From the NCBI GenBank assembly GCA_016218805.1, contig JACRCW010000083.1, positions 1 to 40,368 on the forward strand: a DNA stretch of 40,368 nt, written 5' to 3'. Both the position numbers and the translations under genes were made by a program. Under the pieces are notes generated by a model. It was not told the DNA's origin and did no database searches. It saw only the letters and a program-made list of their open reading frames with translations. This DNA is from Deltaproteobacteria bacterium. Lineage in GTDB: Bacteria > Myxococcota > JACRCW01. Shown here piece after piece: positions 2,983 to 34,247 of this stretch (position 1 is its first letter; each line of letters starts with the position of its first letter).

Positions 2983-3135
2983 CGGGAGGGCGCCTGGTTT
3001 CCTGATAGGCGTCCTTTGTGACTTTGATGACGCTCACCGGGCGGATGACGCGCCAGCTCACGGAGCACCGGATGAACGGGACGTGGAGCGACAGCAGGAC
3101 CGCGCCCACCTGGCAACACCGTAGGAGGGAAGTCC

Positions 3136-4855: not shown

Positions 4856-4877
4856 AGCCGTTCTCCGGCCATTGCGC

Positions 4878-6538: not shown

Positions 6539-7198
6539 CTAGCCTTCCACCGGCGGCAGGCTCCCCATCCCCGGCTCGGCGCGGCCTTCCACGGCGGCGC
6601 GCAGGCCGGCGGCCACCATCGCCACGGCCACGTCGTTGAGGCCTTCGTTGGGGATGACCACGTCCGCGTGGCGGCGGGAGGGCCACACGTACTGCAGGTG
6701 CATGGGCCGCACGGTGCGGAAGTACTGGTCCAGCACCTGGTCCACGGAGCGGCCGCGCTCATGGATGTCACGAACCAGGCGGCGGCCCAGGCGCACGTCC
6801 GCGTCATTGTCCACAAACACCTTGGCGGTCATGCGGTCCCGCAGCGCGGCGTCATGCAGGGCCATGATGCCTTCCAGGATGATGATGGGTGCGCTGGGCA
6901 ACGGCGTCACCTCCACCATCCGCACGCTCTCCACAAAGTTGTACAGCGGCTTGTCCACGGCGTGGCCGGCCAGCAGTGCGTCCACGTGGCGGTTGACCAG
7001 CGGCCAGTCAAACGCGTCCGGGTGGTCAAAGTTGAACTGCTTGCGCTCGTCCGGCGGGACGTCGCTGTTGTCCAGGTAGTAGCTGTCCAGGTCCATGATG
7101 ACGGCGGAATCACGCGGCAGGTGCGCCATGATCTTGCGTGCCACGGTGGTCTTGCCGGAGCCCGTGCCACCCGCGATTCCCACCAGCACCCGCCGCAC
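6539..7198 (-). CDS. udk: Uridine kinase
   Basis: GIAGGTGSGKTT P-loop, DSYY, NFDHPDAFD, ILEGI, RRLVRDIHERGRS motifs. Confidence 0.95.
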   Translation of the reverse strand: MRRVLVGIAGGTGSGKTTVARKIMAHLPRDSAVIMDLDSYYLDNSDVPPDERKQFNFDHPDAFDWPLVNRHVDALLAGHAVDKPLYNFVESVRMVEVTPLPSAPIIILEGIMALHDAALRDRMTAKVFVDNDADVRLGRRLVRDIHERGRSVDQVLDQYFRTVRPMHLQYVWPSRRHADVVIPNEGLNDVAVAMVAAGLRAAVEGRAEPGMGSLPPVEG

Positions 7199-7221
7199 TG
7201 CGCGTGGACCTCCCCGGGCGC

Positions 7222-7770
7222 TCAGCCAGCCCGGCGATAGAGACCGTGGCGGGTGACGTAGTCCACCACGGCGCGGTCCAGAAGGTGGTCCACGGCGCCG
7301 CCCGTTTCAAGCAGCGCGCGCACCTGCGTGGATGAGACCTCCGGCAGCACCAGCCCGCCCACGTCAGGGAAGCCGCCGCGGCCCATGACCACCAGGCCGG
7401 TGGTGGCCCGGATCTCCTCCCAGCCCTTCCACCGGACGGTCTCCGGCAGGATGTCCGCGCCGATCACCAGGGACAGTTCCACGCCCTGGATGCGTGCCCG
7501 CAACGCGCGCAACGTCTCCACCGTCCGGGTGGGGCGCGGCAGCTCCGCCTCCAGCGTGCTCACCTTGGCCCGCCCGCCAAAGTGGCGCACGGCCAGCTCC
7601 GCCATGGCCACGCGGTGGTGGAAGTCCGCCAGCGGCTTGCCAAACGCATGCTCCGGCACCGGCATGACCCACACCTCATCCACCGGCTGCGTGGCCAGCA
7701 CCCACGTCACCGCCAGCTGGTGGGCAACGTGCGGCGGGTTGAAGCTGCCACCGTAGACGGCAATGCGCAT
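7222..7770 (-). CDS. nadD: Nicotinate-nucleotide adenylyltransferase
   Basis: YGGSFNPPHVAH (HxGH-type), IGAD, WKGW, VSSTQVR and C-terminal V.DY...HGLY motifs. Confidence 0.93.
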   Translation of the reverse strand: MRIAVYGGSFNPPHVAHQLAVTWVLATQPVDEVWVMPVPEHAFGKPLADFHHRVAMAELAVRHFGGRAKVSTLEAELPRPTRTVETLRALRARIQGVELSLVIGADILPETVRWKGWEEIRATTGLVVMGRGGFPDVGGLVLPEVSSTQVRALLETGGAVDHLLDRAVVDYVTRHGLYRRAG

Positions 7771-7794
7771 GGCGGGCGGCACTGTACCCCTGCC

Positions 7795-8412
7795 TCACTT
7801 GACGGAGAACTTGGTGCCGCCGCCCACGGTGAGCCCTTCGCGGGACCGCTCGCGCCCGTCCAGATCATGGAACGCCACCGTGATGGACGGGCCCTGCAGG
7901 TCCAGCACGCCCACGGTGGGCTCGTCACCGGTCACGCTGCCGGGGGTGACAAACGCGCGCGGCCCAATGCGCACCACCGCGGCCTTGCGGCTGCGTCCGT
8001 GCAGGATCAGGTGCGCGTTGGCAATGTCCTCCCGGTTGAGGTCCCCCTTGTTGTGCACCAGCAGGCACAACGTGTTGCCCAGCATCTCCATCACCTTCTG
8101 CTCGTCAGCCGGCGCGCCGGTGCCCTTCTCGGCCACGCGCACCACGTCATCACGCGGGGCCGCGTGCGCCTGCCCCGCGGCGGCGTCCGCGGCCAGCGCG
8201 CCCAGCATCAGGGAGACCAGGTCCCCCTCCGTGCTCGGCGGCGGCGGCGGGGCGGCCGCTTCCGCGGTGGCCTCCTGGCACGCGTCCACATCCGCCCAGT
8301 TGCCGCCCAGGAAGAACACCCGTTCACAGTGCAGCGTGTCCACCAGCAGCCGGATGGCACGCGTCAGCGCCGCGATGTCCCCGCCGCTGTCCGCCGCCAA
8401 CCCGATGCGCAT
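7795..8412 (-). CDS. Degenerate YfcE/Vps29-like metallophosphoesterase-fold protein
   Basis: Strand order MRIGLAADSGG / VFFLGG / LLVHN / ILHGRS / FVTPGS mirrors the calcineurin-like YfcE motifs, but most metal ligands are substituted. Confidence 0.65.
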   Translation of the reverse strand: MRIGLAADSGGDIAALTRAIRLLVDTLHCERVFFLGGNWADVDACQEATAEAAAPPPPPSTEGDLVSLMLGALAADAAAGQAHAAPRDDVVRVAEKGTGAPADEQKVMEMLGNTLCLLVHNKGDLNREDIANAHLILHGRSRKAAVVRIGPRAFVTPGSVTGDEPTVGVLDLQGPSITVAFHDLDGRERSREGLTVGGGTKFSVK

Positions 8413-8491
8413 GCCACCCACCCGGTCCAAGTGTTTCGCCGCACCAGCACTATCACGGACTTGAGCGCGCACCCGAGGGCACGCGCCGCCG

Positions 8492-9688
8492 TCACGGGGC
8501 CACCAGCGCGCCGGCGTCAGGCGCCCACCCGCCCGCGTCCCACGCGCGTCCCCCGTCACACGCCTCCGCGCCGCAGGCGGCGGCCACGCAATGGAGCCCG
8601 GGGCACCCGGCGTCACACGGTTCACCCAGGCGTGCCGCGGCCACGCAGCGGCCACCGGTGCACGCGCTGTCAAAGCACGCCTCCGCCGCCCCCGCGCTGC
8701 ACGCATCCCCCGCGCGCGGCCGCGGCGTGCACGTGCCTGACACGCAGCGCTCATCCGCGCGGCAGATGGAGGAGGCGCCACACGCGCCGCCCGCCGGGGA
8801 GACGCGCACGGCCGCACAGCGCTGCGTGGTGGCGTCGCAGTACAGGCGGACACCGTCGTCGTGGCAGCGCGGCGCGCGCTGGCCGGCGGAGTCGCACGCG
8901 GCGCCCTCCTCGCCGGGGCCCAGGCAATGCGTGCCGCCGTCCGTGGCGGAGCACACCAGGCCCGGCGCGCACGGAAGGGAGAACCCGCCGCCCGCCTGAC
9001 AGTCCGCGCCCTCCACGCCCAGCGCCGTGCACACGCCCAGGGGCGGGAACGGCGGGAAACACATGCTGCCGGCGGGGCACGGTGTCGTCGTGCCGGTGCA
9101 CCCCTGGCCCAACCGGAGCGTGCCCGTGCAGCGCCCGTCCGTGCACAGCAGCCCCACCTGGCAGCCCGTGGGACCCCAGCACGGACCGCCCAACGGATAG
9201 CGCGCCACGCACAGACCGCAGGTGTCCGGTCCGCCGCTGCAGTACAGCCCCGGTGCGCACTCCGCCTCCATGGTGCACGGCTGGTCCGCCGTCACGCGCC
9301 CGCTGAACACATCCACGCAGGAGGGAGACGGAGCCTGGTCGCACGCCCGGTCGCGCTCAAACTCAATGCAACCGCGTGCGTGGCGCTTGTCGTAATGCAT
9401 GCGCCCCTGCTGTTCGGCGGCCCGCTGCGGGGCGCGCTCGCGCTCGCAGCGCGCGGTCATGGCGGGCTCGCAGCCCTCCACGTCCACCGCGGCGTACGTG
9501 GCCGGGTCACAGCGCTGCGCGTGCGCGCAGGCGGCGCCGGCCCACGCCGCGCAGAAGTCCGCGGCCGTGCCAGGCTGCGGCTCGGGGAAGGTGTTGAACG
9601 GCTCGGGCAGCACCGGTTCGCACCAGCAGCCCGGCACCTGCAGCGCCGCCAGCGTGGCCAGCACCGCCAACCACCGCCCACCGTGCAC
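8492..9688 (-). CDS. Cys-rich secreted protein or lipoprotein (Dickkopf-like Cys repeats)
   Basis: GTG 9688 after GGAG; hydrophobic leader ending VPG-C; FCAAWAGAACAHAQRC domain followed by GxxC-x(n)-CxxGLxC repeats. Confidence 0.75.
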   Translation of the reverse strand: MHGGRWLAVLATLAALQVPGCWCEPVLPEPFNTFPEPQPGTAADFCAAWAGAACAHAQRCDPATYAAVDVEGCEPAMTARCERERAPQRAAEQQGRMHYDKRHARGCIEFERDRACDQAPSPSCVDVFSGRVTADQPCTMEAECAPGLYCSGGPDTCGLCVARYPLGGPCWGPTGCQVGLLCTDGRCTGTLRLGQGCTGTTTPCPAGSMCFPPFPPLGVCTALGVEGADCQAGGGFSLPCAPGLVCSATDGGTHCLGPGEEGAACDSAGQRAPRCHDDGVRLYCDATTQRCAAVRVSPAGGACGASSICRADERCVSGTCTPRPRAGDACSAGAAEACFDSACTGGRCVAAARLGEPCDAGCPGLHCVAAACGAEACDGGRAWDAGGWAPDAGALVAP

Positions 9689-9803
9689 CCGTGTCTCCAC
9701 CACGCCGACCCGCCTCCGCCGTCCGCGAGGACCCCGGCGACTGTTACGGGACACCCCCGGGACGGGCAAGCCTCCTTGGCGGCGTGGGCGCAACCGGCGG
9801 CGG

Positions 9804-11057
9804 TCACCGCTGGGCACAGGCGCCCAGCAGCCGCACCAGGAAGTCCAGCATCCCCGTCGTCACGCCCGTGCCCTGCAACCGCTCCAGCGCGGCAAACAAC
9901 TCCATCCCCGCGCCGTCCACCAACAGAGGCAGCACAGACCCCACCACGTCACGCGCCAGCGTCTCGTCCAGCGCCAGGCGCCCGGTGACGCGCGCCAGGT
10001 ACGCGTTGAGCTCCGCGCCGGACCGCGAATCCACCGTCGCCGCCAGGTTGGGAACAAAGTCCCGCCACTGCAGGCTCTCCAGCCGGATGTAGTCGAACAA
10101 CATCCCCGCCATCTCATGCCCCGGGTCCTGGCGCCGCACGCACCCCAGCACCTGTTGCAGCGGCTGCAGCAGGCCCAGCTCCGGCGCCAAACCCAGGCCC
10201 AGCGCATCCAGAAACGCGTCCAGCCGTGCGCGGGTCTCCGCCGCCAGCCGCCGTCCCACAACGTCATCCACCTGCACGCGCAGGTTGCTCTCATAGTACT
10301 GCAGCGTGAAGGACGGTGAGACAATCCCGTCCACCAGCAGGTCCGCGAACAACTGGAACGCGGCCCGCCCGATGGCCGCGGGCCGCCCGGGCTCGTCAGA
10401 GAACTCCAGGCCGTCCAGCGCCTGGGACAGCGCGGGGTCAGCAATGAGCGCGGCCAGCGCGTCCAGCAGCGCGCTGGCAAACAACCGGGTCCCTGACGGG
10501 CAGCCCGCGCACGGCACGCGCACGGACAGCACGCGGTTCGCCAGCTGCATCACCGCCCGCGGCTGACAGACGCGCAGCGCGTCCGCCGTCACGCGCACGG
10601 GCCCGGCGTGCGGCCCCGCGGCAAACTCCTCGCCGGGCAGAAGCCCCAGCTTGGGTGACCCCACCACGTACCAGATGATCGCCCGCGCGTGCGGCGCCAG
10701 CCGCGCCAGGCTGTCCCCCGCCCGCAGGTCCTCCAGCGCCGGGACCAGGCCCCGCGGCGGCGCTTCCCTGAACAGTTCCAGCCCCACCCGCACCGCCTGC
10801 CGCCACTTGCCGGTCCGCACCAGCTTGTCCCGCACCAACTCCCCCAGCGGCTGCAGGTCCTCCCGGCTGGCCGCGCCAGTCACCGCCGCTCGTGCGCCCT
10901 CCAGGGTCCCGCACGCGCCGCCGTCCCCCGTCCCGGTGTTGGGCTCCATGTAGGGCGCCGGGTGACCTGCACCTCCACAGGCCACCAGGGCGGCCGCGGC
11001 CAGACCCGTGGACCACCGCCGCGGGGATGTGGTCCGTGGGTGCACGGGGGTGCTCAT
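9804..11057 (-). CDS. Hypothetical helical lipoprotein
   Basis: ATG 11057; GLAAAALVA-C lipobox; Leu/Ala-rich helical body; GC3-rich codon usage. Confidence 0.75.
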   Translation of the reverse strand: MSTPVHPRTTSPRRWSTGLAAAALVACGGAGHPAPYMEPNTGTGDGGACGTLEGARAAVTGAASREDLQPLGELVRDKLVRTGKWRQAVRVGLELFREAPPRGLVPALEDLRAGDSLARLAPHARAIIWYVVGSPKLGLLPGEEFAAGPHAGPVRVTADALRVCQPRAVMQLANRVLSVRVPCAGCPSGTRLFASALLDALAALIADPALSQALDGLEFSDEPGRPAAIGRAAFQLFADLLVDGIVSPSFTLQYYESNLRVQVDDVVGRRLAAETRARLDAFLDALGLGLAPELGLLQPLQQVLGCVRRQDPGHEMAGMLFDYIRLESLQWRDFVPNLAATVDSRSGAELNAYLARVTGRLALDETLARDVVGSVLPLLVDGAGMELFAALERLQGTGVTTGMLDFLVRLLGACAQR

Positions 11058-18363: not shown

Positions 18364-18440
18364 CGGGGCGTAGCTCAGCCTGGTAGAGCGCTTGGTTCGG
18401 GTCCAAGAGGTCGTAGGTTCAAATCCTGTCGCCCCGACCA
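18364..18440 (+). tRNA. tRNA-Pro (anticodon CGG)
   Basis: 77 nt; acceptor stem CGGGGCG/CGCCCCG plus ACCA; D-arm GCTCAGCCTGGTAGAGC; anticodon arm CTTGG-TTCGGGT-CCAAG; T-loop GGTTCAAATCC. Confidence 0.97.
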
Positions 18441-18442
18441 GT

Positions 18443-18493
18443 CCACCGCCGCGCTTTCACGGAGAAATCCGGGGGGCGCGGCGGTGGTGTTTG
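18443..18493 (+). terminator. GC-rich hairpin directly after tRNA-Pro
   Basis: CCACCGCCGCGC (18443-18454) pairs with GCGCGGCGGTGG (18476-18487), with an inner CGGA-GAAA-TCCG hairpin, followed by TGTTTG. Confidence 0.6.
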
Positions 18494-18509
18494 AGGCGTC
18501 CGCGAGACT

Positions 18510-18536
18510 CCGCAGCGCCGGCGCAGCGATTGGCCC
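18510..18536. repeat. 27-bp direct repeat, copy 1
   Basis: ccgcagcgccggcgcagcgattggccc, identical to 19746-19772. Confidence 0.9.
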
Positions 18537-18763
18537 GGGATCGATGCCCACCACGGCGGCGAGCGAGGCGGACTCCTCGGATCGGGGGTCGATGGACGGC
18601 AGGCGGTTCACCGCCGTGCGCAGGTCGCTCAACTCGAGGTGCCCGTAGACCTGCGACGTGAACCGCGGATCGGTGTGGCGCAGCACGCGGTGGACGGTGG
18701 CGATCGAGCTCGCGCCCCTCGCGCGCGGCTGCTGCGCGAAAAGGACGTGCACCGCAGGCGGCT

Positions 18764-19048
18764 TCACAATCGCCGCGGCCACCGTCGAGCGCCGTGGAGC
18801 ACGCGCGCGATCTCCACGCGGTCTGCGCCCACGCGATAGGCCACCACGTACGGCAAGCCGGACACCACAAGCTCGCGCGTGCCCTTGGCCCGGCCGGGGC
18901 GACCCATCTTGGGAAACTCCATCTGCCCTTCGATGGCTGACAGCACGCGGTCCACGGTCTCCACCGCCGCGGCCGGGTTGTGTTGCTGGATGTATCCGAG
19001 GATGTCGTCGAGATCGTTGAGTGCGGTCTCGGCGAGAATCAGCCGCAA
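18764..19048 (-). CDS. Type II toxin, RelE/ParE family
   Basis: ALNDLDDILGYI...FPKMGRPGRAKGTRELVVSGLPYVVAYRV...EIARVLHGARRWP; overlaps the antitoxin stop. Confidence 0.92.
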   Translation of the reverse strand: MRLILAETALNDLDDILGYIQQHNPAAAVETVDRVLSAIEGQMEFPKMGRPGRAKGTRELVVSGLPYVVAYRVGADRVEIARVLHGARRWPRRL

Positions 19049-19320
19049 CGCGGTTTCTCCGCCGGGCGACCCGCCGCCTTGTTGCGCAGGTAGGCCTTCG
19101 CCTCGTCCCAGTTCACCGTGCGTCCTTCATCCGCGGCGCGCAGGCCTTCGTTCACCGCCGCGACCCACGCGTCGTCGTCCAGGAACGCCACCACGGCTTC
19201 CGCGGCCAGCTCCGCCTCGCTGCAGTGCTCCTCGGCAGCGCGTGCCCGCAGGCGCTCCAGCGCCTCCGCTGGCAGGTGAAGCGTCAGTTCCTTCGAGGTT
19301 GCTGGGACGGGCTGGCTCAT
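19039..19320 (-). CDS. CopG/RHH-type antitoxin
   Basis: N-terminal LTLHLPAEALERLRARA RHH pattern and acidic EGLRAADEGRTV segment; lies directly upstream of the toxin. Confidence 0.85.
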   Translation of the reverse strand: MSQPVPATSKELTLHLPAEALERLRARAAEEHCSEAELAAEAVVAFLDDDAWVAAVNEGLRAADEGRTVNWDEAKAYLRNKAAGRPAEKPRCG

Positions 19321-19559: not shown

Positions 19560-19715
19560 TTGCGCCGCTGAACAGCGCGAGATCCTCCTCGCGCACGCGG
19601 ATCGCGTTGAGAACGCGGACGTGCGGCAGGCGCCCCTCCTCGCAGAGGCGTAGACGGTGGCCTTGCAGACGCCCTGGCGGGCGGCGACCGCAGGCACCGA
19701 GAGGAGGGACGCGCC
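19560..19715 (-). pseudogene. Excisionase-like HTH (HTH_17) with a 1-bp frameshift
   Basis: LLSVPAVAARQGVCKATVY in one frame continues as LCEEGRLPHVRVLNAIRVREEDL in another; one base is missing near 19647. Confidence 0.75.
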
Positions 19716-19745
19716 CCTGCCCGGGACGAGTTTGAGCGCCGCGGG

Positions 19746-19772
19746 CCGCAGCGCCGGCGCAGCGATTGGCCC
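19746..19772. repeat. 27-bp direct repeat, copy 2
   Basis: Identical to 18510-18536. Confidence 0.9.
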
Positions 19773-24093: not shown

Positions 24094-24990
24094 TCAGGCC
24101 GCCACCGCCGCCCGCTCCGTCAACGCGGCCCACAGCGGCGCACCCGCGCAGGCCAGGGACAGCGCCCGTGCGCCCAACTCCGCGGGGACTGCCGGGTGGT
24201 CGCGGTTCACGCGCACCAGGTGGGCGTCCGCGTGGCGGTGGGCAATCTCTTCGGCCGGCCACCGGACCACCGGCGGCGTGTTGAACCCCGAGCCGACGTC
24301 AAGAACGAGCAGCCGTCCAGACGCCGCCTGGTCCAGCCACGCGCGCAGGCGGTGCGCCTGTGGCTGGTACGGTTTGTCAATGAACCAGTCACCCCCGCGC
24401 ACGTTGAGCATTGCGCGCCCACCACAGCGCGGGCACCGCGGTACCAGCGTGGCGTCCACCAGTTCCTCCGTTGCCAGGTCCACGCACGGCAAGGCCGCGC
24501 GCACCCACTGCTCCGCAGGCCACGTGGCGTCGTCATGGCACCGCGCCAGGCATTGCAGGCGGCTGTAGCTTCCCTGCCGTGTCCAGATGCGGCTTGGGTC
24601 AAACCCGCTGCGCTCAAACAGGTCATCCGCGTTGCTGGTGAGCACAAACCGGTCACGGTGCGCGGTGAGTGCGCACAGCTGCAGGTACGGCGTGGGGTTT
24701 GGTGGTGGCTGGAAGCGCAGTTCTTGAAGGTGACGGGCCAGGTGGCCCCATTGCACCGCCTCACTTGGCCAGGGGTAGCCGAACACGTGGTAACGGCAAC
24801 GCGGCCCGCGCTCCGCCATCCGCGGGTAGCGCCGCCCGAACTGGCGCTCATCCGTGTAGTCAAACCCGGCATCCACGCTCATGCCGGCGCCCGCCGTGAT
24901 GAGGACGTGGTCCGCCTCCGTCAGCAGCCGGTCCACCCGCTCCACCACCTCCCGCGAAAGGGCCGTGCCCTTGGTGCGTCGTTCACGCAT
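24094..24990 (-). CDS. Class M sirtuin (SirTM, NAD-dependent protein ADP-ribosyltransferase)
   Basis: ITAGAGMS, FVLTSNAD, TRQGSYSRLQC (Gln at the catalytic-His position), CxxxC/CPRC Zn finger, LDVGSGFNTPPVVRWP. Confidence 0.88.
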   Translation of the reverse strand: MRERRTKGTALSREVVERVDRLLTEADHVLITAGAGMSVDAGFDYTDERQFGRRYPRMAERGPRCRYHVFGYPWPSEAVQWGHLARHLQELRFQPPPNPTPYLQLCALTAHRDRFVLTSNADDLFERSGFDPSRIWTRQGSYSRLQCLARCHDDATWPAEQWVRAALPCVDLATEELVDATLVPRCPRCGGRAMLNVRGGDWFIDKPYQPQAHRLRAWLDQAASGRLLVLDVGSGFNTPPVVRWPAEEIAHRHADAHLVRVNRDHPAVPAELGARALSLACAGAPLWAALTERAAVAA

Positions 24991-25795
24991 GACATGCCTC
25001 CTCGGCGGCCACCGCGTAGGTGGCACGTTCGTGCTCGGTGAAGGTGACCAGGACCACGTGGTGCGGGGCCGCGTGGTCTTGGAGGTAGGAGCGGACCGCC
25101 GCCAACGCCGCCGGCGCCGCGCTGGCCACCGGGTAGCCAAACACCCCGGTGGAAATCCCGCAGAATGCGACTCGGGTCCCCAGCCCCGCCGCCGCCGCAA
25201 GACACGACGCGTAACAACGCCAAAGCAGTTCCGCGTCACCGGCCGTGGGGTCCCGTCCGGCAAGGGCGGGGCCCACGGTGTGCACCACGTGCCGCGCTGG
25301 CAGGAAGTAACCGCGGGTGACGGTGGCGGTGCCACACGGCTCCGGCCGCCCGCGCGCAACCATGATCCGGCCGCACTCCTCACGGAGGCGCGGCCCGGCC
25401 GCCGTGTGGATGGCGTTGTCCACGCATCCGTGCCGGGGCTGATAACAGCCGGTCAGCCCGGAATTGGCCGCATTGACCACGGCATCCACCTCCAGCGCGG
25501 TGATGTCCCCGTGCCAGAGACTGACCCGTGACGCCCACCCCGCCTCACCCAGGCGCGCCAGGTCAGCGGCCCGCGTAGCGGTGCGCCCGGCGGATTCGGC
25601 CGCCCACAGCGCGTCCAGCAGCGGCCAGGCTTCCGCCGGTATGGCGTCCCACGCCGTGCGCGTCAGTACGGTGCGCAACCGCTCCCGCGCCGCCGCGGCG
25701 GGCAGGACTTGGACGTCTCCCAACACGCGGCGGATTCGGCTGACGAGCGATTCGGCGGTGACGGTGGGGAGCGGGGCGGGCGGCATCGGGATCAT
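24983..25795 (-). CDS. Zn-dependent macrodomain protein-ADP-ribose hydrolase
   Basis: WHGDIT, VNAANSGLTGCYQPRHGCVDNAIH (C-x4-H-x-C zinc loop), HTVGP, ISTGVFGYP; overlaps the sirtuin start. Confidence 0.92.
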   Translation of the reverse strand: MIPMPPAPLPTVTAESLVSRIRRVLGDVQVLPAAAARERLRTVLTRTAWDAIPAEAWPLLDALWAAESAGRTATRAADLARLGEAGWASRVSLWHGDITALEVDAVVNAANSGLTGCYQPRHGCVDNAIHTAAGPRLREECGRIMVARGRPEPCGTATVTRGYFLPARHVVHTVGPALAGRDPTAGDAELLWRCYASCLAAAAGLGTRVAFCGISTGVFGYPVASAAPAALAAVRSYLQDHAAPHHVVLVTFTEHERATYAVAAEEACHA

Positions 25796-25890
25796 GGTGG
25801 GCCGTGAACGTACGGCGCCGCACCCCCGCCGGCCATGACGGGCCATCCCGCTTGTATTGCAGATCGTCTCGCCGACAGATACGAAATGGC

Positions 25891-26787
25891 ATGGACCTTC
25901 TAACGGACTGGCTGGCCAGCGCGGGAACCAGTTTGGGAATGCTGGTGCGGGCGCGCCTGGCGCTGCCGTGGGGCATGAAGCTGGAGCCACACGGCGAGGT
26001 GATGTTCCACGTGGTGGTGGGCGGCAGTTGCTGGGTGCGGACGCCGTCCGTGAAACCCCGGCGTCTCCACCAGGGCGACATGGTGCTGCTGCCCCACGGT
26101 GATGGCCATGAGCTGGCGGATGAGGCGGAGACACCGGCCGTGGCGCTCCCCGCCGTCCTGGGGCGCGCCCCACCTGCCCGCGCCGCGCCCGCCACCACGC
26201 TGCTGTGCGGGACCTATTCGTTGGAGGATCGGATCGCGCGGCCTTTGTTGCGCTCGCTGCCGCGCGTGGTGGTTTTCAGCGCGGAGCGCGTGCGCGCCCA
26301 TCCGCCGCTGGGTGCGCTGCTGGCGCTGCTGACCCGTGAGGTGGACCAGCCCCAACCCGGTGGGGACGTCCTGGTGCGCCACCTGCTGGACGCGCTGTTC
26401 ATCTACGTGGTGCGTGCGTGGCTGGCGGAGGATGCCGCCGGTCCAACCAGTTGGCTGGCCGCGCTGCGGGACCAGCCGGTGGCCAACGCGCTGTCCCGCA
26501 TGCACGCGGAGCCGGCCCGGAACTGGACGGTGCAAGGACTGGCGCGCGTGGCCGGGCTCTCACGCGCGGCGTTCGCGCGGCGCTTTGCCGGGGCCATGGG
26601 TGAACCTCCGCTCACATACCTGGCGCGCTGGCGGATGGGTCTGGCGGCGCGCCTGCTCGTTGAGTCAGACGCATCCCTGGCCGAGGTGGCCACGCGCGTG
26701 GGTTACGAATCCGAGTTCGCGTTCAGCCGCGCGTTCAAGCGCATTCGCGGCCGCGCGCCGGGCGCCTTCCGGCGCGCCGCGGCGTGA
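25891..26787 (+). CDS. AraC-family regulator with cupin_6 domain (RclR-like)
   Basis: FHVVVGGSCW, GDMVLLPHGDGH, LLCG; C-terminal WTVQGLARVAGLSRAAFARRF...VGYESEFAFSRAFKR. Confidence 0.92.
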   Translation: MDLLTDWLASAGTSLGMLVRARLALPWGMKLEPHGEVMFHVVVGGSCWVRTPSVKPRRLHQGDMVLLPHGDGHELADEAETPAVALPAVLGRAPPARAAPATTLLCGTYSLEDRIARPLLRSLPRVVVFSAERVRAHPPLGALLALLTREVDQPQPGGDVLVRHLLDALFIYVVRAWLAEDAAGPTSWLAALRDQPVANALSRMHAEPARNWTVQGLARVAGLSRAAFARRFAGAMGEPPLTYLARWRMGLAARLLVESDASLAEVATRVGYESEFAFSRAFKRIRGRAPGAFRRAAA

Positions 26788-26862
26788 GCGCGCGCCGGTC
26801 CGGCACCGCGACGCGGGTTGAATCGCCAAGACGAAAGGGATGGACGCACAGGGCCGGCGGGT

Positions 26863-27819
26863 TCAACACGCATCCAGCACCGCTAAGTTCCGCTCCGGGC
26901 GGCGGGGAACGGATGCGGGAATGCACTGGGCCACGCATTCCTCCAGCGCGCGCAGGATCGCGAGCTTCCAGTGATCGCGTCGATAGACGATGCTGATTTC
27001 CCGCGCCGGCACCGGCGCGCGGAACGGGCGGACGTGCGCATCACGCTCTTCCCGGGGCAGCCCCTGCGCCATCAGCGCAGGAATGAGCGTGTGACCCTGG
27101 CTGCCCCGCACCAGGCGGCGCAGCGTGTCCAGGCTGCCGCTTTCAAAACGCACGTTTCCCGGCACCACATCACCCTGACCGGGCACCGCGCAGAAGTTCA
27201 GCACCTGGTCCTTGAAACAGTGACCGTCCTGCAACAGCCACATCTCGGCGGGATCCAGCTGGTCCCGCGTGATGCGGTCGTGACGCAGCAGCGCGTGCCC
27301 GGCAGCAAAGTACGCAAGGAAAGGCTCGTAATACAGCGGGTGCACCTTCAGCCCGGTGGCCGCCACCGGCGTGGCCAGCACGGCGCCGTCAAGGCGGTCC
27401 CTGGCCAGCTCGTCCAGGATGGTCTCCGTCTTGGCCTCTTCAATCAGCAGGCGCACCCGCGGATGCGCGCGCGTGAAAGGCTTGAGGAGGTACGGCAGCA
27501 GGTGGCTGGCCACCGTGGGGATGATGGCAAGTTTGAAGTCACCGCTGGCGGACCCGTCCGGTGCCTGTTGGGCCACCTGCAGGAGGCGCTCGTATTCGCG
27601 CAGGACCGTGCGTGCCTGCTCAAGGAACTGGCGGCCCTCCGGCGTCACCAGGATGGGTTTCCGCGCGCGGTCAAACAGGACCAGGCGGACGTCGTCCTCC
27701 AGTTTCTGGAGTTGCTGGGAAAGCGTGGGCTGACTCACGTGGCAGGCCAATGCCGCCTTGCCAAAGTGCCGCTGTTCGTCGACGGCGAGGGCGTACTGGA
27801 GCTGGAGGAGCGTGGGCAT
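26863..27819 (-). CDS. oxyR: Hydrogen-peroxide sensor OxyR (LysR family)
   Basis: HFGKAALACHVSQPTLS HTH; LLQDGHCFKDQVLNFC containing both redox Cys; divergent from ahpC. Confidence 0.92.
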   Translation of the reverse strand: MPTLLQLQYALAVDEQRHFGKAALACHVSQPTLSQQLQKLEDDVRLVLFDRARKPILVTPEGRQFLEQARTVLREYERLLQVAQQAPDGSASGDFKLAIIPTVASHLLPYLLKPFTRAHPRVRLLIEEAKTETILDELARDRLDGAVLATPVAATGLKVHPLYYEPFLAYFAAGHALLRHDRITRDQLDPAEMWLLQDGHCFKDQVLNFCAVPGQGDVVPGNVRFESGSLDTLRRLVRGSQGHTLIPALMAQGLPREERDAHVRPFRAPVPAREISIVYRRDHWKLAILRALEECVAQCIPASVPRRPERNLAVLDAC

Positions 27820-27825
27820 CGTGTG

Positions 27826-27861
27826 ATAGGCTAACGCTATCGACCCATCACAACAAGTGAT
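27826..27861. promoter_or_regulatory. OxyR-type binding site
   Basis: ATAG-N7-CTAT (27826-27840) followed 6 bp later by ATCA-N7-TGAT (27847-27861) in the oxyR-ahpC intergenic region. Confidence 0.75.
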
Positions 27862-27914
27862 TTCACTTATGGCGTGCCCGGGCGCATCCTGCGGTCACCA
27901 AGGAGGCAGGACCC

Positions 27915-28481
27915 ATGAACACGCTCATCAACACTTCCATCCCCGATTTCAAGGTGCAGGCCTATCACGACGACGCATTCCGCACGGTCACCCGGGAGGA
28001 CCTGCGCGGGAAATGGTCCATCTTCTTCTTCTACCCGGCGGACTTCACGTTCGTGTGCCCGACGGAGCTGGGCGACATGGCGGACAAGTACGAAGCGTTC
28101 AAGAAGCTGGGCGTGGAGGTGTATTCCGTCAGCACCGACACGCACTTCACGCACAAGGCCTGGCATGACGCGTCGGAGACCATCAAGAAGATCCGCTACC
28201 CCATGCTTGCGGACCCCACGGGCCACCTGAGCCGCGCGTTGGGGGTCTACATTGAAGAGGAGGGGCTCGCGTACCGCGGCACGTTTGTGGTTGACCCGGA
28301 GGGGCGCATCAAGATTGCCGAGGTCAACGACAACGGCATTGGCCGCAACGCCGACGAACTGCTGCGGAAGGTGCAGGCCGCGCAGTTTGTGGCGTCCCAT
28401 CCCAACGAGGTGTGCCCGGCCCGGTGGACGCCCGGCGCCAAGACGCTGAAGCCGGGGTTGGACCTGGTGGGAAAGATCTGA
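27915..28481 (+). CDS. ahpC: Alkyl hydroperoxide reductase C (2-Cys peroxiredoxin)
   Basis: FYPADFTFVCPTE, EVCPA, C-terminal LDLVGKI; AGGAGG RBS. Confidence 0.97.
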   Translation: MNTLINTSIPDFKVQAYHDDAFRTVTREDLRGKWSIFFFYPADFTFVCPTELGDMADKYEAFKKLGVEVYSVSTDTHFTHKAWHDASETIKKIRYPMLADPTGHLSRALGVYIEEEGLAYRGTFVVDPEGRIKIAEVNDNGIGRNADELLRKVQAAQFVASHPNEVCPARWTPGAKTLKPGLDLVGKI

Positions 28482-28507
28482 ACGCACGGAACACGGAGGT
28501 GGACGCC

Positions 28508-30058
28508 ATGTTGGATGACGGCATCAAAGAACAACTCGCGGAGGTGTTGGGGCGCCTGGAGGAGGAGGTGGCGCTGCGCGTGCCGGAGAGCGCGCATTCC
28601 GAGCACGGTGAGTTGCTGGCCATGCTCCACGACGTGGCGTCCACCTCCGCGAAGGTGCGCGTGGACCAGATCACCGGCGGGGGGACCGACGCGCCGGTGG
28701 TGGTCCTGCACGGGCCGGCGAGCAATGGCGCCATCCGGTTCCGCGGTGTTCCCGGTGGTCACGAGTTCTCATCGTTGATCCTGGGCATCCTGTGCGCCGG
28801 CGGAAAAGGCCGACTTCCGGACCCGGGCATCCTGGGACGCATCCGGGCACTGAAGGGGCCCATCCGGCTGCGCACCTACGTGTCCTTGTCCTGCGAGAAC
28901 TGCCCGGACGTGGTGCAAGCCTTGAACCTGATGGCTACGGTGCACCCGGACTTCCACCACGAAACCGTGGACGGCGCGGTGGCCCGGTCCGAGGTGGAAG
29001 CGTTGGCCATCCAGGGTGTGCCGTCCGTGATTCACCAGGACACACTGCTCCACGCGGGCAAGGCGTCGCTCGCGGAGCTGCTCGCGGTCATGGAGCGCTC
29101 GTTCGGCACCACCGCCGGCCCTGCCGCGGCGGACCTCGGGCTGTTTGACGTTGTCGTCGTTGGAGGTGGCCCCGCCGGGGCATCCTCCGCAATCTACAGT
29201 TCACGCAAGGGACTGCGGACCGCCATGGTGGCGGAGCGGCTGGGCGGCCAACTGCGGGAAACGCGCGGAATAGAAAACATGATTTCCGTGGCTTACACGG
29301 AGGGCGCACAGCTGGCGGCTCAGCTGTCCGAACACGTGGCGCGTTACCCGGTGGAGGTGTTTGAGCACCGCCGCGTCTCACGCATTACCGGCGACACGGA
29401 GAAACGCATTGAATTGGAGAGCGGGGAAACCCTGCGTGCCCGGACGGTGATTGTCGCAACGGGCGCGCGCTGGCGGCAACTCGGCATTCCGGGAGAGCAG
29501 GAGTACATCGGGCGGGGCGTCGCGTTCTGTGCACACTGCGACGGGCCCTTCTACAAGGGCAAGAACGTCGTCGTCGTGGGCGGCGGCAATTCCGGGGTGG
29601 AAGCGGCGGTGGACCTCGCGGGCATCGCGCGGGAGGTGACACTGGTGGAATTCGCCGGGCAGTTGAGGGCGGACAGCGTGCTGGTACAGAAACTGACGGA
29701 ATTGCCCAACACCCGCATCATCACCCACGCCCGGAGCACCCAGGTGTTGGGTGACGGCAAGCAGGTGGTGGGCCTGGAATACGAGGACCGCCAGACCAGC
29801 GTGCGAACCACGCTCGCCGCGGACGGGGTGTTCGTGCAGATCGGGTTGTTGCCCAATTCCCAGTTCCTCAAGGATGACGTCCAGCTGGCGCCCACGGGGG
29901 AAATCATGGTGGACGGGTGCGGCCGCACCTCCGTACCCGGTATCTACGCCGCCGGGGACGTGACCACGATTCCGTTCAAACAGATCGTCATGGCGATGGG
30001 GGACGGCGCACGCGCGGCACTGGGCGCCTTTGAGGACCGGTTGCGCGCGACCCCGTGA
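28508..30058 (+). CDS. ahpF: Alkyl hydroperoxide reductase F
   Basis: PGGHEFSSL, SLSCENCPDVVQALN, GGGPAG, CAHCDGP, GGGNSG, YAAGDVT motifs. Confidence 0.96.
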   Translation: MLDDGIKEQLAEVLGRLEEEVALRVPESAHSEHGELLAMLHDVASTSAKVRVDQITGGGTDAPVVVLHGPASNGAIRFRGVPGGHEFSSLILGILCAGGKGRLPDPGILGRIRALKGPIRLRTYVSLSCENCPDVVQALNLMATVHPDFHHETVDGAVARSEVEALAIQGVPSVIHQDTLLHAGKASLAELLAVMERSFGTTAGPAAADLGLFDVVVVGGGPAGASSAIYSSRKGLRTAMVAERLGGQLRETRGIENMISVAYTEGAQLAAQLSEHVARYPVEVFEHRRVSRITGDTEKRIELESGETLRARTVIVATGARWRQLGIPGEQEYIGRGVAFCAHCDGPFYKGKNVVVVGGGNSGVEAAVDLAGIAREVTLVEFAGQLRADSVLVQKLTELPNTRIITHARSTQVLGDGKQVVGLEYEDRQTSVRTTLAADGVFVQIGLLPNSQFLKDDVQLAPTGEIMVDGCGRTSVPGIYAAGDVTTIPFKQIVMAMGDGARAALGAFEDRLRATP

Positions 30059-30125
30059 CGCCGGGCCGCGCACACCGGCAGCAAGCCGCCACGGTCCACA
30101 TGGTTTCCCGCGCGTGCCGTGGCCA

Positions 30126-30173
30126 TTGACGGGGCCGCGGACCGCGCCTATGTTTCGATACATGTCGAAACAT
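30126..30173 (+). promoter_or_regulatory. Sigma70 promoter with overlapping palindromic ArsR-type operator
   Basis: TTGACG (30126-30131)-N17-TATGTT (30149-30154); perfect inverted repeat ATGTTTCGA-N6-TCGAAACAT (30150-30173). Confidence 0.8.
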
Positions 30174-30536
30174 CGAACCATGCCCCTGGACCGGCTGGCG
30201 GCCATGTTCAAGGCGCTGTCTCACCCGCAGCGCCTGAAGATCATCCAGAAGCTGTGCGGGTGCTGCGCACCGGGGGCCGCGTGCACCACCCGGGCAGACG
30301 GGTTGCGCTGTTGCGCCGGGGACCTGGGCGCGGACCTGGGGTTGGCCGCATCCACGGTGTCCCATCACCTCAAGGAACTGCGCCAGTGCGGCATCATGGA
30401 GGTGCAGCGGTGCGGACAGCGGGTGGAGTGCTGGATCAACCCCGCGGCGCTTGGCCAGCTGACCGCGTTCCTGGCCGGGGCGGTCTCCATGCACCCCGCA
30501 GCGACGGGAGGCGGCCATGGTCGTTCCAAGCGGTAG
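30162..30536 (+). CDS. Cys-rich ArsR/SmtB-family regulator upstream of hgcA
   Basis: MFKALSHPQRLKI, CAGDLG, LAASTVSHHLKELRQCG; 9 Cys. Start at 30162 or 30180. Confidence 0.9.
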   Translation: MSKHRTMPLDRLAAMFKALSHPQRLKIIQKLCGCCAPGAACTTRADGLRCCAGDLGADLGLAASTVSHHLKELRQCGIMEVQRCGQRVECWINPAALGQLTAFLAGAVSMHPAATGGGHGRSKR

Positions 30537-31587
30537 CGCGCTCAGCACGCACTTCACGGACGGCGCGGTGGACGCGGCGGGCGTCCAGGTGCCGCGCGTG
30601 CGCACGGCGCTGACGTGGAGGGACCACTGGGGCACGCTGCTGGCGCGCTGGGCCATCCACCGCATGGACTACCGCGTGGCCCCGGGGTTGTACGCAGCGG
30701 GAACGCCGGATGCGACGTCACCGGTGCTCGTCTCAGCCAACTACAAGATGAGCTTTGACTGCGTCCGGTCGGCGCTCGCGGGCCGCCACGCGTGGCTCCT
30801 TGTCCTGGACACGGCGGGCATCAATGTGTGGTGTGCCGCGGGCAAGGGCACGTTTGGCACGGACGAGTTGGTGCGGCGGGTGGCGGATACCGGGCTGGAC
30901 CGCGTGGTGTCCCACCGCAAACTGGTGGTGCCGCAATTGGGTGCACCCGGCGTGGCCGCGCATGAGGTGCGCCAGCGTTGCGGGTTCCGAGTCATGTACG
31001 GACCTGTTCGGGCGGAGGACCTGGCCGCGTTCCTGGACGCCGGGATGAAGGCGTCGCCGGAGATGCGGCAGGTGCGCTTCAACCTGCGCGACCGGATGAC
31101 GTTGAGCCCCGTGGAGTTGATGCAGGGATACAAGGTCGTCCTGCCGGTTGCCGCGGTATTGCTGCTGCTCGGCGGCCTGCGGTCCAGCGGGTGGTCCTGG
31201 GACGCGGCCCGCCAGACGGGCGGATTGGCGGCGCTGCTGCTCTTTGCTGCTTTTACCGGTGCCGCAGTGCTGGGTCCCGCGCTGTTGCCTTGGCTTCCCG
31301 GCCGGGCCTTTTCGGTCAAAGGCGCAATGCTGGGCGTGGCGTTTGCTGCGCTGCTGCCGCTGACGGGTGGGGCAGGTTCCCCGTGGCACACGGCCGCGTG
31401 GGCGTTGCTCATCCCAGCCCTGGCCAGCTTTGCGCTGATGAACTTCACGGGTGCCACCACGTTCACCTCGCTCAGCGGCGTGCTGGCGGAGATGCGGCGG
31501 GCCGTGCCCGTGCAGGTGACCGCGGCCGTGGTGGGCCTGGGCTTGTGGGTCGCGGGTCTTTGGCTGGATGGAGGGCCGACCACGTGA
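30517..31587 (+). CDS. hgcA: Mercury methylation corrinoid protein HgcA
   Basis: PGLYAAG, SPVLVSANYKMSFD, cap helix GINVWCAAGKGTFGT, PQLGAPGV, YGPVRAEDL, plus C-terminal TM domain ending MNFTGATTFTSLSGVLAEM. Confidence 0.97.
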   Translation: MVVPSGSALSTHFTDGAVDAAGVQVPRVRTALTWRDHWGTLLARWAIHRMDYRVAPGLYAAGTPDATSPVLVSANYKMSFDCVRSALAGRHAWLLVLDTAGINVWCAAGKGTFGTDELVRRVADTGLDRVVSHRKLVVPQLGAPGVAAHEVRQRCGFRVMYGPVRAEDLAAFLDAGMKASPEMRQVRFNLRDRMTLSPVELMQGYKVVLPVAAVLLLLGGLRSSGWSWDAARQTGGLAALLLFAAFTGAAVLGPALLPWLPGRAFSVKGAMLGVAFAALLPLTGGAGSPWHTAAWALLIPALASFALMNFTGATTFTSLSGVLAEMRRAVPVQVTAAVVGLGLWVAGLWLDGGPTT

Positions 31588-31877
31588 GGTACATCGAGGA
31601 CGTTGTCACGCTGGAACTGGACGTGGACCGGTGCAATGGCTGCCGCATGTGCCTGCGCGTGTGCCCCCACGCCGTGTTCCAGATGAGCGGCAAACGCGCC
31701 GTCCTGCATGACCGCGGGGCATGCATGGAGTGCGGCGCCTGCGCCCGCAACTGCGAGCAGGGCGCCATCCGCGTTCGCGCGGGCGTGGGTTGCGCCGCCG
31801 GCGTCTTGGCGGGCCTGGTGGGCGGCAGCGAACCCAGTTGCGGCTGCTCCGTCGACAAACCATCCGGGTGTTGCTGA
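31584..31877 (+). CDS. hgcB: Mercury methylation 2[4Fe-4S] ferredoxin HgcB
   Basis: GTGA overlap with the hgcA stop; CNGCRMCLRVCPHAVF, CMECGACARNC, GVGCA and C-terminal CGC...CC. Confidence 0.96.
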   Translation: MRYIEDVVTLELDVDRCNGCRMCLRVCPHAVFQMSGKRAVLHDRGACMECGACARNCEQGAIRVRAGVGCAAGVLAGLVGGSEPSCGCSVDKPSGCC

Positions 31878-32124
31878 GCGGCCCGACTGGGGGGGCGAGA
31901 TCCCGCGGTTCAACGCCGCCGCCGGAAACCCGCCAGAAACGCAAGGCCGGCGCAAATCGGCAAGATTCCTCCAGACAGAACACCGCTGGCGGCGCACCCG
32001 CAGCCCGCCCATGGTCGCTCGTCGTGAGAATTGTCCGGATACCCCCGCGCGAACGGTTGGGCCTCCATGGGGACCAGGATCGCTCCCTTCCGCGCCGCCC
32101 GCATCGTCGGAGGTAGCCCGGGAA

Positions 32125-33300
32125 TCAGAACGGCATGGACGTGTCACACGGGTGCCAGACGGCGAACGGGTCCAGACCGCGCCCGTTGGGGGTCAAATCG
32201 GCCTGTGTGGTGTGCTTCAGCGTGCGCCGGTTGTTCCAGAGTTCAAAGCCCATGAACGAAGGAAACCGCCAGGCCATCTCAACGTCCGCCGCCTGCCACG
32301 TGCCGCCGTTGATGAACGTGGACAGCGCACCTCTGGGATGTGCCGCGTAGCTGATGGCACCAAGGCGGGTAACCAGGTCATTGGCCCGGGCCACGGACGG
32401 CATGAACGCGCCAAGGCACTCCATCGGCCAGGCGCCCCCTGACGCGGAGGATTCCACGTATCCGCCGCCGAACTCGAGCATATGGATGGTCTTCTCGTCG
32501 GCCGATTTCACGTTGATTTCTTCACCGGTGACGATGACAAACGGCCGGCGCGCAGCCACCCAGGACATCGCATCTTCGGCGTCGCTGGTCATGGCGTGCC
32601 AGGGGTCGTTGAAATCACCCTGCCCGGCGGAGTGGTCACGCACCACACAAGACAGGCCACCGCCGGTGGCTTCACAGTGCGTGAACCGCGCCACGCGCGA
32701 CGACGTCTTCTCGAACCCCGGTGCCGAATAGCAGGGATCATCCAAGTCACAGGAGTGATTCGTGGTGATTGCCCATCCAGCCCCAGGGCTTCGCCGGCGT
32801 TGGCCATGCTCCGGTGCGGCAGGCCAAACTCCGCCCAGTTGTTGGTGTACAGCGTGTGCGAGTGCGCGTCTCCGGCGTACCACGCCCCGAATTGGCCACG
32901 CCCCTGGGGGAGCGGCGCCTCCCCACGTGGACGCGCAGGCGGACGACGTAGTGCGGGTTGCGCTCGCAGCCGTCCGCATGGAGATCCACCGGAAATCCAG
33001 GTCCCTCCCCGTGGCGTCAGCACCCCAGACCCGCCGGGGCGTGATGAGTTCGCCATCAGCCGCCATCCCTTCATTGCCGGTGAAGCGGCGGAGCTCCGCC
33101 ACAAACATGCCCGCGGTCTCCTCCGCTGCCGCCAGGTCCACGCCGCCAAAGTTCCGGGACGCAACGTTGACCCAGTCGTTCTTCAACACCCGGATGCGGG
33201 CGGAGCGGAGGCGCAGCTCGCGGCAGCGGTCGGCATCCGCCGCAATGATGGAGAATGGAATGAGATCCTGTTCGCGCGGGTCCTTCCCGGTGAGGGCGCC
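32125..33300 (-). pseudogene. Frameshifted, truncated PHP-fold (CehA/McbA-like) metallohydrolase
   Basis: WYAGDAHSHT...GLD in one frame; WAITTNHSCD, GEEI, IHML, YAAHP, FELWN in another; apparent 1-bp deletions near 32990, 32922 and 32776; no terminal GxSDxH motif. Confidence 0.7.
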
Positions 33301-33436
33301 ATGCCACGCCAGTGACGCAAGCCGCGCAGCGCCGCAGCACTCCGGGCCGCGCGCCAGCAACAACTTCAACTGCTGCACGAGCATGGCGGCCGCCCGGGCG
33401 CCGGATGCCTATTCTGCGATCCGAAGGGAGGTTGTC

Positions 33437-33745
33437 ATGAGTTCGCGCATCAGAGGTGCCGTAGGGGTCTTCGCGGCCATCCTGCTGCCGCCGGTCTCAG
33501 CATTCGCGCAGGCATCACCAGACCCGTTTTCCATGGGCGGCCTGGTCGGTGGCGCCATGTGGTCGTCCGTCGCGCTGGCGGGCACACTGTTGTTGGTGGC
33601 CGCCGCCGTCGTGGCGGTGGTGGCGGTGCCGTGGTTGAGGAAAGGCGGTCGCAGCCCGTGGGAGCAACGCCGCGCGCGGCGAATGGACAACACCGTCTGG
33701 ACACCGGAGCAGCGCCTGGCCGCAAGAGCCCGCGCGAAGCCGTGA
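33437..33745 (+). CDS. Small membrane protein with signal peptide
   Basis: GGAGG RBS; signal peptide ending AFA; one TM helix; basic tail. Confidence 0.55.
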   Translation: MSSRIRGAVGVFAAILLPPVSAFAQASPDPFSMGGLVGGAMWSSVALAGTLLLVAAAVVAVVAVPWLRKGGRSPWEQRRARRMDNTVWTPEQRLAARARAKP

Positions 33746-33854
33746 CGTCAGGGCGGACTTATCCGGTGCGGCCCAATCCGCCCGCACCGTGAGCCGGGCG
33801 ACCGTTCGCCCGCGAGTGACGCGCTTGTGATCCGGCTGGATAGAAGACGGCTCG

Positions 33855-34247
33855 TCAGACGCCGTGTGCTCGCTGCGGAAGGCCGTCGGTGATGTCGTAG
33901 TAGTCGCCCTTGTCGGCAGCGTGGACGTGGATGCACGTCCGCGTGCCGGTAGGTCCGTCAAAGGCCCCCATGGCAATCCCTATCCAGTCCTTGTCCACGT
34001 GGTCCCAGAACAGCGATGAGCCGCACGTGGCACAGAACCCGCGGCGCACCCGCTCCGTGAAGAACCAGGACACGTGTTCGGCGCCCCGCACGGTGACCGC
34101 GGTCCGGGGCACGTCTGTGGAAACAAAGTAATGGCCGGAGAATTTCCGGCATTCGCGGCAGTGGCAGGCATCGGGCGGGGCAAGCTCACCCGTGACCGCC
34201 AACGTCACCTTGCCGCACAAGCAGGACCCTTGGAGCGTCGCGTTCAT
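33855..34247 (-). CDS. GFA/CENP-V family zinc protein
   Basis: GSCLCGKV, CHCRECRK, RGFCATCGSSLFW motifs. Confidence 0.93.
   Translation of the reverse strand: MNATLQGSCLCGKVTLAVTGELAPPDACHCRECRKFSGHYFVSTDVPRTAVTVRGAEHVSWFFTERVRRGFCATCGSSLFWDHVDKDWIGIAMGAFDGPTGTRTCIHVHAADKGDYYDITDGLPQRAHGV

Follow-up and report, generated by a model that had tools for sequence, protein, structure and literature searches.

Why does a mercury methylation module, arsR-hgcAB, lie directly beside a peroxide defence module, oxyR-ahpCF, and a SirTM/Zn-macro ADP-ribosylation pair with a divergent araC-type gene? This arrangement occurs on contig JACRCW010000083.1 of Deltaproteobacteria bacterium (Myxococcota; assembly GCA_016218805.1), for which a first-pass annotation proposed a stress island with AhpCF and ADP-ribosylation as protectors or regulators of HgcAB. 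We analysed the window, that is, the whole stretch of 40,368 nucleotides. The results indicated that the modules are probably three self-contained units that accreted horizontally as cargo in an island anchored at tRNA-Pro, in a host that is Myxococcota-like and microaerophilic. The idea of a conserved or co-regulated system was not supported, since the linkage was found only here and the candidate control sites are separate.

Nine intact genes are contiguous at 24094-31877, with no intervening gene:

24094..24990, minus strand: SirTM, a class M sirtuin (ADP-ribosyltransferase type); best PDB matches 8rsn and 5a3a
24983..25795, minus strand: Zn-dependent macrodomain (ADP-ribosylhydrolase) with NAAN, Cx4HxC (C117/H122/C124) and Dx3H motifs and an N-terminal extension
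25891..26787, plus strand: AraC-family regulator with Cupin_6 and HTH_18 domains (Pfam), divergent from the macro gene
26863..27819, minus strand: OxyR, the best NCBIfam and PDB match; GHC-x8-C motif, C201-x8-C210
27915..28481, plus strand: AhpC; TIGR03137, 323 bits against a cut-off of 272; C48 and C167
28508..30058, plus strand: AhpF; TIGR03140, 701 against a cut-off of 503; two CxxC motifs
30162..30536, plus strand: ArsR/SmtB repressor of 124 amino acids with 9 cysteines; NF033788, 62.9 against a cut-off of 55
30517..31587, plus strand: HgcA, corrinoid mercury methyltransferase; NF040863, 440 against a cut-off of 275
31584..31877, plus strand: HgcB, ferredoxin; NF040864, 115.5 against a cut-off of 99; two CxxCxxCxxxC motifs and a C-terminal CC

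Genes were called across the region with our own script. The intergenic gaps are 95 bp (macro-araC), 75 bp (araC-oxyR), 95 bp (oxyR-ahpC), 26 bp (ahpC-ahpF) and 103 bp (ahpF-arsR), and the overlaps are 8 bp (sirTM/Zn-macro), 20 bp (arsR/hgcA) and 4 bp (hgcA/hgcB). Family scores and motifs bore out the gene identities, order, orientation and contiguity given in the first-pass annotation, with starts corrected for sirTM (24990, not the upstream GTG at 25383 of a long open reading frame, ORF), Zn-macro (about 25795), araC (25891) and arsR (30162). AhpC, AhpF, HgcA, HgcB and ArsR passed curated NCBIfam cut-offs. OxyR (200, cut-off 329), Zn-macro (NF003163, 236 bits, cut-off 272) and the sirtuin scored under their equivalog cut-offs, yet carry the defining motifs. 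HgcA has the cap helix NVWCAAGK at position 103, matching N(V/I)WCA(A/G)GK, which we take to be the family motif, and shows 5 hydrophobic segments by hydropathy, where at least 4 C-terminal transmembrane helices are expected. The presence of HgcAB makes the host a putative mercury methylator. A search of plasmids gave no match to HgcA, and only generic family matches (≤47%) to the AraC.

An assembly or binning artefact could also have joined DNA of different organisms, as the 6.43-Mb genome (70% GC, 92% complete) is metagenome-assembled in 170 contigs. We examined four groundwater DNA runs from one study. Run X1, possibly the source sample, gives the cleanest read support: two separately assembled unitigs (24976-28163 and 28167-33909) span both module junctions with 0 differences, and their depth is even, 21.6 and 24, with 19.6 for the core side. 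The ahpF-arsR junction is also bridged by a contig of a second sample (X3, 30005-30516), and contig composition is typical of the bin. The crossing unitigs and this second bridge make a chimera extremely improbable.

We then assessed whether the linkage recurs elsewhere, as the first-pass annotation had suggested checking. OxyR, the AhpF N-domain and SirTM were absent from all 128 other hgcA loci surveyed, which form 104 clusters at 80% identity and come with about 1.8 Mb of flanks; ArsR, used as a positive control, was enriched within 3 kb of hgcA (17 vs 4 clusters, p=0.008). Likewise, oxyR, ahpCF and hgcA were missing from all 86 SirTM loci (72 clusters), although the macro gene stood beside SirTM in 59 of the 61 with enough upstream DNA, and neither hgcA nor SirTM occurred at the 5 other ahpF loci. 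One hgcA-like locus under the cut-off (L025) was left out of the hgcA and SirTM surveys, and one with an hgcA fragment (L026) out of the hgcA survey. Among 400 genomes of the same phylum, in which the top 3-6 candidates per genome were scored, hgcA (over cut-off) had 11 carriers, ahpF 4 and SirTM 8, with no overlap. In 80 further hgcA genomes (of 88 from the phylum of a Desulfomonile locus), AhpF was absent, and the SirTM/Zn-macro pair was found once, on another contig. Another set of 41 hgcA genomes lacked the pair; the best other macro protein there carries a GGGG loop.

Several candidates in these surveys were set aside. Sirtuin matches at seven same-phylum loci had no macro neighbour and 29-33% identity, and were not counted. 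In the 80 further genomes, 4 of 5 sirtuin matches had His rather than Gln at the diagnostic position, and the one in G500, 6 kb from hgcA, is an ordinary sirtuin. A macro gene 3.1 kb from hgcA (L266) carries a GGGG loop instead of the Zn-loop.

Next, the origins of the modules were compared, by pairwise identity for AhpCF and SirTM and by a quick tree for HgcA. AhpC was closest to G032 (82%, family f6), while SirTM was closest to G264 (69%, f11) and 72% identical to a Myxococcales-labelled protein. HgcA was at most 67% identical to any listed homolog; it fell near G141 (f21, the nearest among the phylum rows; weak support of 83) and outside a well-supported clade (96) holding the HgcA of the same-class genome G002. 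The nearest kin thus change from module to module, in genome as well as in family. Alternatively, an unsampled donor may have brought the three modules together and passed them on as a single cassette, each still under its own regulation. The tight, scarless junctions (75-103 bp), the similar codon statistics across modules and the rarity of each module in the phylum would fit such a transfer, but no second two-module junction appeared in the surveyed hgcA, SirTM and ahpF loci, the nearest homologs differ by module, and the rest of the island shares the same codon statistics. We regard transfer as a single cassette as distinctly unlikely.

The contiguity exceeds random gene scatter, each module occurring in only 1-3% of the 400 same-phylum genomes. 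The genomic context accounts for this: the 7.8-kb block makes up the middle third of at least 22 kb of accessory DNA, a larger decayed island that runs from a tRNA-Pro gene to past the contig end, which explains the co-occurrence of three rare modules. The left end of the island contains the following features:

18364..18440, plus strand: tRNA-Pro(CGG), found with ARAGORN; left anchor, directly after which codon adaptation falls
18573..18782, minus strand: probable C-terminal remnant of a tyrosine integrase (weak; phrog_1 integrase, E=0.042; no Pfam integrase match)
18764..19320, minus strand: ParE toxin and putative antitoxin (parDE; PF05016, E=3e-17)
19560..19722, minus strand: broken excisionase-like HTH_17 remnant (weak; PF12728, E=0.002 and 0.073 in two different frames)

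The parDE pair is flanked by a 48-bp direct repeat (18489-18536 and 19730-19772), and a paralogous copy lies on contig C28. Median codon adaptation was 0.755 for the 10 core genes before the tRNA (6.4-18.4 kb) and 0.599 for the 21 genes after it (p=2e-5), a level as low as in only 3.8% of 2218 same-sized gene windows. The 9 module genes (0.604) did not differ from the 12 other island genes (0.579, p=0.24), whose products include glycosyltransferases, a GFA-family protein, SLT and TPR proteins and unknowns. A tRNA anchor, weak mobility remnants and a compositional shift are thus all present. The region resembles a typical tRNA-anchored genomic island in its tRNA gene, its remnants of mobility genes, its toxin-antitoxin pair and a codon adaptation that stays low for at least 22 kb; an intact integrase and a right att site were not found, and the cargo combination was unseen in the other loci examined. 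The 'island' of the first-pass annotation therefore stands as an accessory island, but one far larger than the three modules and with unrelated cargo. GTTCAAC/GTTGAAT words near the junctions had suggested integron attC sites; by eye, these sites are incomplete and were rejected.

The control regions carry further evidence that the modules are separate units:

27826..27840, no strand assigned: OxyR-type half-box ATAG-N7-CTAT between oxyR and ahpC, the sole perfect copy in the assembly
30126..30154, plus strand: sigma-70-type promoter TTGACG-17-TATGTT, the sole promoter match in 8.4 kb (shuffles 0.4 +/- 0.7), a weak signal alone
30150..30173, no strand assigned: perfect 9-6-9 palindrome, the putative ArsR operator, in overlap with the -10 box and with arsR codons 1-4

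The oxyR and arsR modules thus each show a candidate control site of their own, not shared with another module, and the idea of shared regulator sites was not supported, with the OxyR box and the ArsR operator each occurring once in the genome, at its own module. For the half-box we take ATAG-N7-CTAT to be the OxyR consensus, which makes it a candidate site; even at up to 2 mismatches no OxyR box was found in the macro-araC or ahpF-arsR gaps. The palindrome occurs once in the genome when up to 3 mismatches are allowed, and of 125 perfect 9-6-9 palindromes no other is AT-rich. The arsR start, placed by homolog N-termini, lies inside it, 7 nt past the -10 box, and the transcription start predicted for the promoter coincides with the arsR ATG or adjoins it, from which we infer a leaderless, autorepressed transcript. 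The host's separate ars-like operon on contig C42 (arsR, acr3, arsC and neighbours) lacks this operator.

A layout of TTGACA, palindrome and ATG recurs at arsR genes of the same clade in L193 (genome G141, directly before hgcAB) and L026. The L193 proteins are 55-57% (ArsR), 58% (HgcA) and 65% (HgcB) identical to those of the window, and oxyR, ahpCF and sirTM are missing nearby. With its own promoter and operator in a layout conserved at L193 and L026, arsR-hgcAB is a portable unit with its own switch. The most reusable result of this work is the candidate operator and promoter of one hgcAB-controlling ArsR clade, both sharply defined. The N-terminal MS(K/N)x of this clade is encoded by the right arm of the operator. 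In homologs P0124, P0128 and P0133, upstream extensions resemble, by eye, a translated left arm, which suggests that the layout is clade-wide. In L026 (G045, 8510-10566), the same-clade arsR and operator are followed by a DsbD-type gene and by an hgcA matching only the first 74 model positions.

Several observations, in this paragraph and the next, weigh against accretion of separate units. The comparison database contains no genome of the same genus and one of the same family, so that unsampled relatives could still share the linkage. Many loci are short: upstream DNA extends to 6.5 kb at only 21 of the 86 SirTM loci, and 3.7 kb is reached at 35 of the first 49 hgcA loci. Carriers are rare enough (chance overlap of 0.1-0.2 genomes) that the separate carrier sets speak for no co-inheritance, not for avoidance. 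Pfam detected distant AraC and Bcp neighbours that tblastn had not picked up, and the HgcA quick tree is mostly weakly supported around the window sequence. For the island, tetranucleotide usage is unremarkable and does not single out the block, no right att site turned up before the contig end, the match behind the integrase remnant is statistically weak, and no intact integrase was seen.

In addition, no intrinsic terminator was found after ahpF, and the fold of the ahpF-arsR gap has z=-0.15. Around other hgcA genes, thiol-repair genes are in weak excess at distances of up to 3 kb (10 vs 2 clusters, p=0.03). These two points favour a local coupling, in which OxyR-driven ahpCF transcription reads through the 103-bp gap into arsR-hgcAB on the same strand, and/or AhpCF is retained because it shields HgcAB's cob(I)alamin and Fe-S centres, so that hgcAB answers both peroxide and metal(loid). 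Gene content agrees with this: the host has a cbb3 oxidase (over cut-off) and a PFOR-like gene, while searches of its 92% complete genome for catalase, KatG, Fe/Mn-SOD and cytochrome bd gave no match. It also encodes a second heme-copper-family protein. The natural reading of this content is a microaerophilic or facultative lifestyle with a thin defence against reactive oxygen species, and together with the missing terminator it would allow read-through or indirect protection of HgcAB. The scan, however, found no terminator at the ends of the block's other operons either, and the host has Rho, so that the result after ahpF says little and was rejected as evidence of read-through. Moreover, arsR has its own promoter and operator, and oxyR-ahpCF was absent from all 128 other hgcA loci surveyed. 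The thiol-gene excess falls to 7 vs 1 clusters (p~0.05) without the discovery loci and to p=0.36 for msr alone, and it is to be read with the facts that the queries were picked from such neighbours, that kin are not independent and that some matches are generic disulfide reductases. A juxtaposition in one genome cannot carry a claim of read-through or protection, and we consider local coupling unlikely. The same low standing applies to dual control of hgcAB by ArsR and OxyR read-through with AhpCF keeping the HgcAB centres working at an oxic-anoxic boundary, which we hold to be doubtful. If true, read-through or protection would bear on methylmercury formation in low-oxygen waters and on the native role of hgcAB; taken with the msrAB and seleno-peroxiredoxin genes that recur beside hgcAB in other lineages, it would hint that oxidative-stress repair is repeatedly recruited there, enabling micro-oxic mercury methylation.

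Thiol-repair genes near hgcAB were also recorded in their own right. At 6 of the 128 loci, from about 3 lineages, msrAB is found no more than 3.3 kb from hgcAB. In two related genomes (G703, L234:820-5009; G623, L235:7063-11187), a TGA-containing, probably selenocysteine, peroxiredoxin gene about 1 kb upstream of hgcAB is accompanied by a cupin and an AbrB-like gene, and msrA/msrB lie downstream. Two further lineages have fused or adjacent msrAB at most 3.3 kb away from hgcAB (further loci L261, L268, L297 and L312).

A further alternative concerns the ADP-ribosylation pair: SirTM might modify HgcA, HgcB or AhpC/F, and Zn-macro might reverse this, as a redox switch on methylation. The adjacency of the modules fits, as does the host genome, which has no match to GcvH (GCV_H), so that the known SirTM target is not available, and according to PMC11490716 the targets of lone SirTM/Zn-macro pairs, already published there, are unknown. 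In contrast, hgcAB and ahpCF were near none of the 86 SirTM loci, the pair was absent from 79 of the 80 further hgcA genomes and from the 41 others, and elsewhere it stands under different regulators (Rrf2, other AraC, MarR, ECF sigma). Such a switch is therefore very improbable.

The pair itself resembles the lone SirTM/Zn-macro pairs described earlier (Rack 2015; Ariza 2024) in its His-to-Gln sirtuin, Cx4HxC macrodomain and overlapping genes with macro first. Aligned to 5a3a and 8rsn, SirTM has QG at positions 139-140; Gln139 replaces the catalytic His and is invariant in 55/55 aligned homologs. The pair differs in that its sirtuin matches the fungal fusion protein 8rsn (E 1e-47) better than the streptococcal 5a3a (3e-25), and in its divergent cupin-AraC, which is not kept with the pair elsewhere. 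None of GcvH-L, LplA, LLM and OYE, which mark the extended lipoate-linked SirTM operon, was found in the window. Regulators before lone pairs appear interchangeable: Rrf2 at 4 loci (L218, L219, L220, L222; two with a double-SnoaL gene between), AraC plus double-SnoaL at 5 (L125, L132, L142, L145, L154), an ECF-type sigma factor at 4 (L115, L131, L151, L159) and MarR at 3 (L103, L144, L149). The recurring SnoaL partner could hint at a substrate or pathway.

All three regulators had been assigned to families with Cys-based sensing, which holds as likely for OxyR and ArsR but only partly for the AraC. OxyR carries the C199/C208-type cysteine pair of its family as C201/C210. ArsR carries C35, C51 and C90, invariant in 27/27 aligned homologs (C29, C45 and C84 if counted from a later ATG). 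The AraC has RclR as its best NCBIfam match (116 bits, cut-off 400) and is 28% identical to E. coli RclR, a HOCl-sensing AraC of the Cupin_6 type; its C106 corresponds to C89, whereas Ala stands at the C21 position and rclABC is not adjacent. According to PMC7464077, RclR activation needs both Cys21 and Cys89, and only one of these two sensor cysteines is kept here.

The oxyR-ahpCF module matches the known peroxide defence locus in its divergent C-x8-C oxyR, ahpC-ahpF operon and OxyR-type box, and its layout is also found in G032 and G186, with the same half-box word in the oxyR-ahpC gap of G032, not of G186. It differs in being rare in the phylum (ahpF in 4/400 genomes); Myxococcus xanthus ahpC is reported under PexR instead (PMC12754779). 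Based on these features, OxyR would sense H2O2 via C201/C210 and activate ahpCF from the box before ahpC, and AhpCF would probably be a main peroxide scavenger, catalase not having been found in the host.

ArsR upstream of hgcAB has been published before (PMC7438021, PMC10349881, bioRxiv 2022.10.17.512643); PMC10349881 gives ArsR within three ORFs of hgcA in 14/31 cultured methylators, and PMC7438021 describes hgcAB neighbourhoods as otherwise sharing little. In Pseudodesulfovibrio mercurii ND132, hgcAB is reported to be induced by As, not by Hg (bioRxiv 2022.10.17.512643). The window shares with the ND132 ArsR2 unit, as described there, an ArsR/SmtB gene directly upstream of, and overlapping, hgcA-hgcB. 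Its cysteine spacing appears to depart from the four-cysteine C47/C49/C86/C88 motif of ND132; it also differs in an operator over a probably leaderless start and in the preceding ahpCF. By analogy to ND132, ArsR may repress at the palindrome over its own promoter and start codon until it is released by a metal(loid), which is probably As(III); the unit's own promoter would yield a single arsR-hgcAB transcript. The SirTM/Zn-macro pair may add and remove ADP-ribose on some protein, probably under the divergent AraC. These regulator-site contacts and inducers, and the order in which the modules arrived, are inferred.

Our search of open-licence PMC and bioRxiv texts found none joining hgcAB with OxyR or AhpCF, although neighbourhood tables in supplements could list such a locus. 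The three-module combination seems undescribed, a single instance of known parts. The first-pass annotation had named linkage confined to one genome, unrelated donors and lack of co-regulation as what would speak against its proposal, and the results largely agree with these. On this reading the importance of the locus is modest: one more putative mercury methylator, whose genome is myxobacterium-like and oxygen-respiring. A myxobacterial paralog domain scored above its cut-off in this genome.

Elsewhere, the gene before hgcA often encodes a small regulator, in agreement with PMC10349881: MarR (L048, L051, L056, L057, L079), an AbrB/MazE-like protein of about 92 amino acids (L049, L063, L066, L068, L070; Pfam match only in L068) or ArsR (L192, L193, L197, L198, L061). 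At L236 (G500, 1290-9525), hgcAB follows directly after a glycine-cleavage/lipoate cluster and a LigB-type dioxygenase gene, named from translations, with LigB checked by Pfam.

Other observations concern the rest of the host genome. On contig C154 (10545-14367; L044, L045), two adjacent, divergent genes of the heme-copper-oxidase family fit no NCBIfam model (best CoxA, 78 of 671 bits) and possibly encode an atypical oxidase or NO reductase. In the window, 3' of hgcB (32125-33400), long ORFs with PHP/metallo-hydrolase-like words but no Pfam match, apparently in more than one frame, may be a broken gene. A second stretch of low codon adaptation at the left contig end (1-6300), with DUF1801, LuxR-type and unknown genes, is possibly another accessory region.

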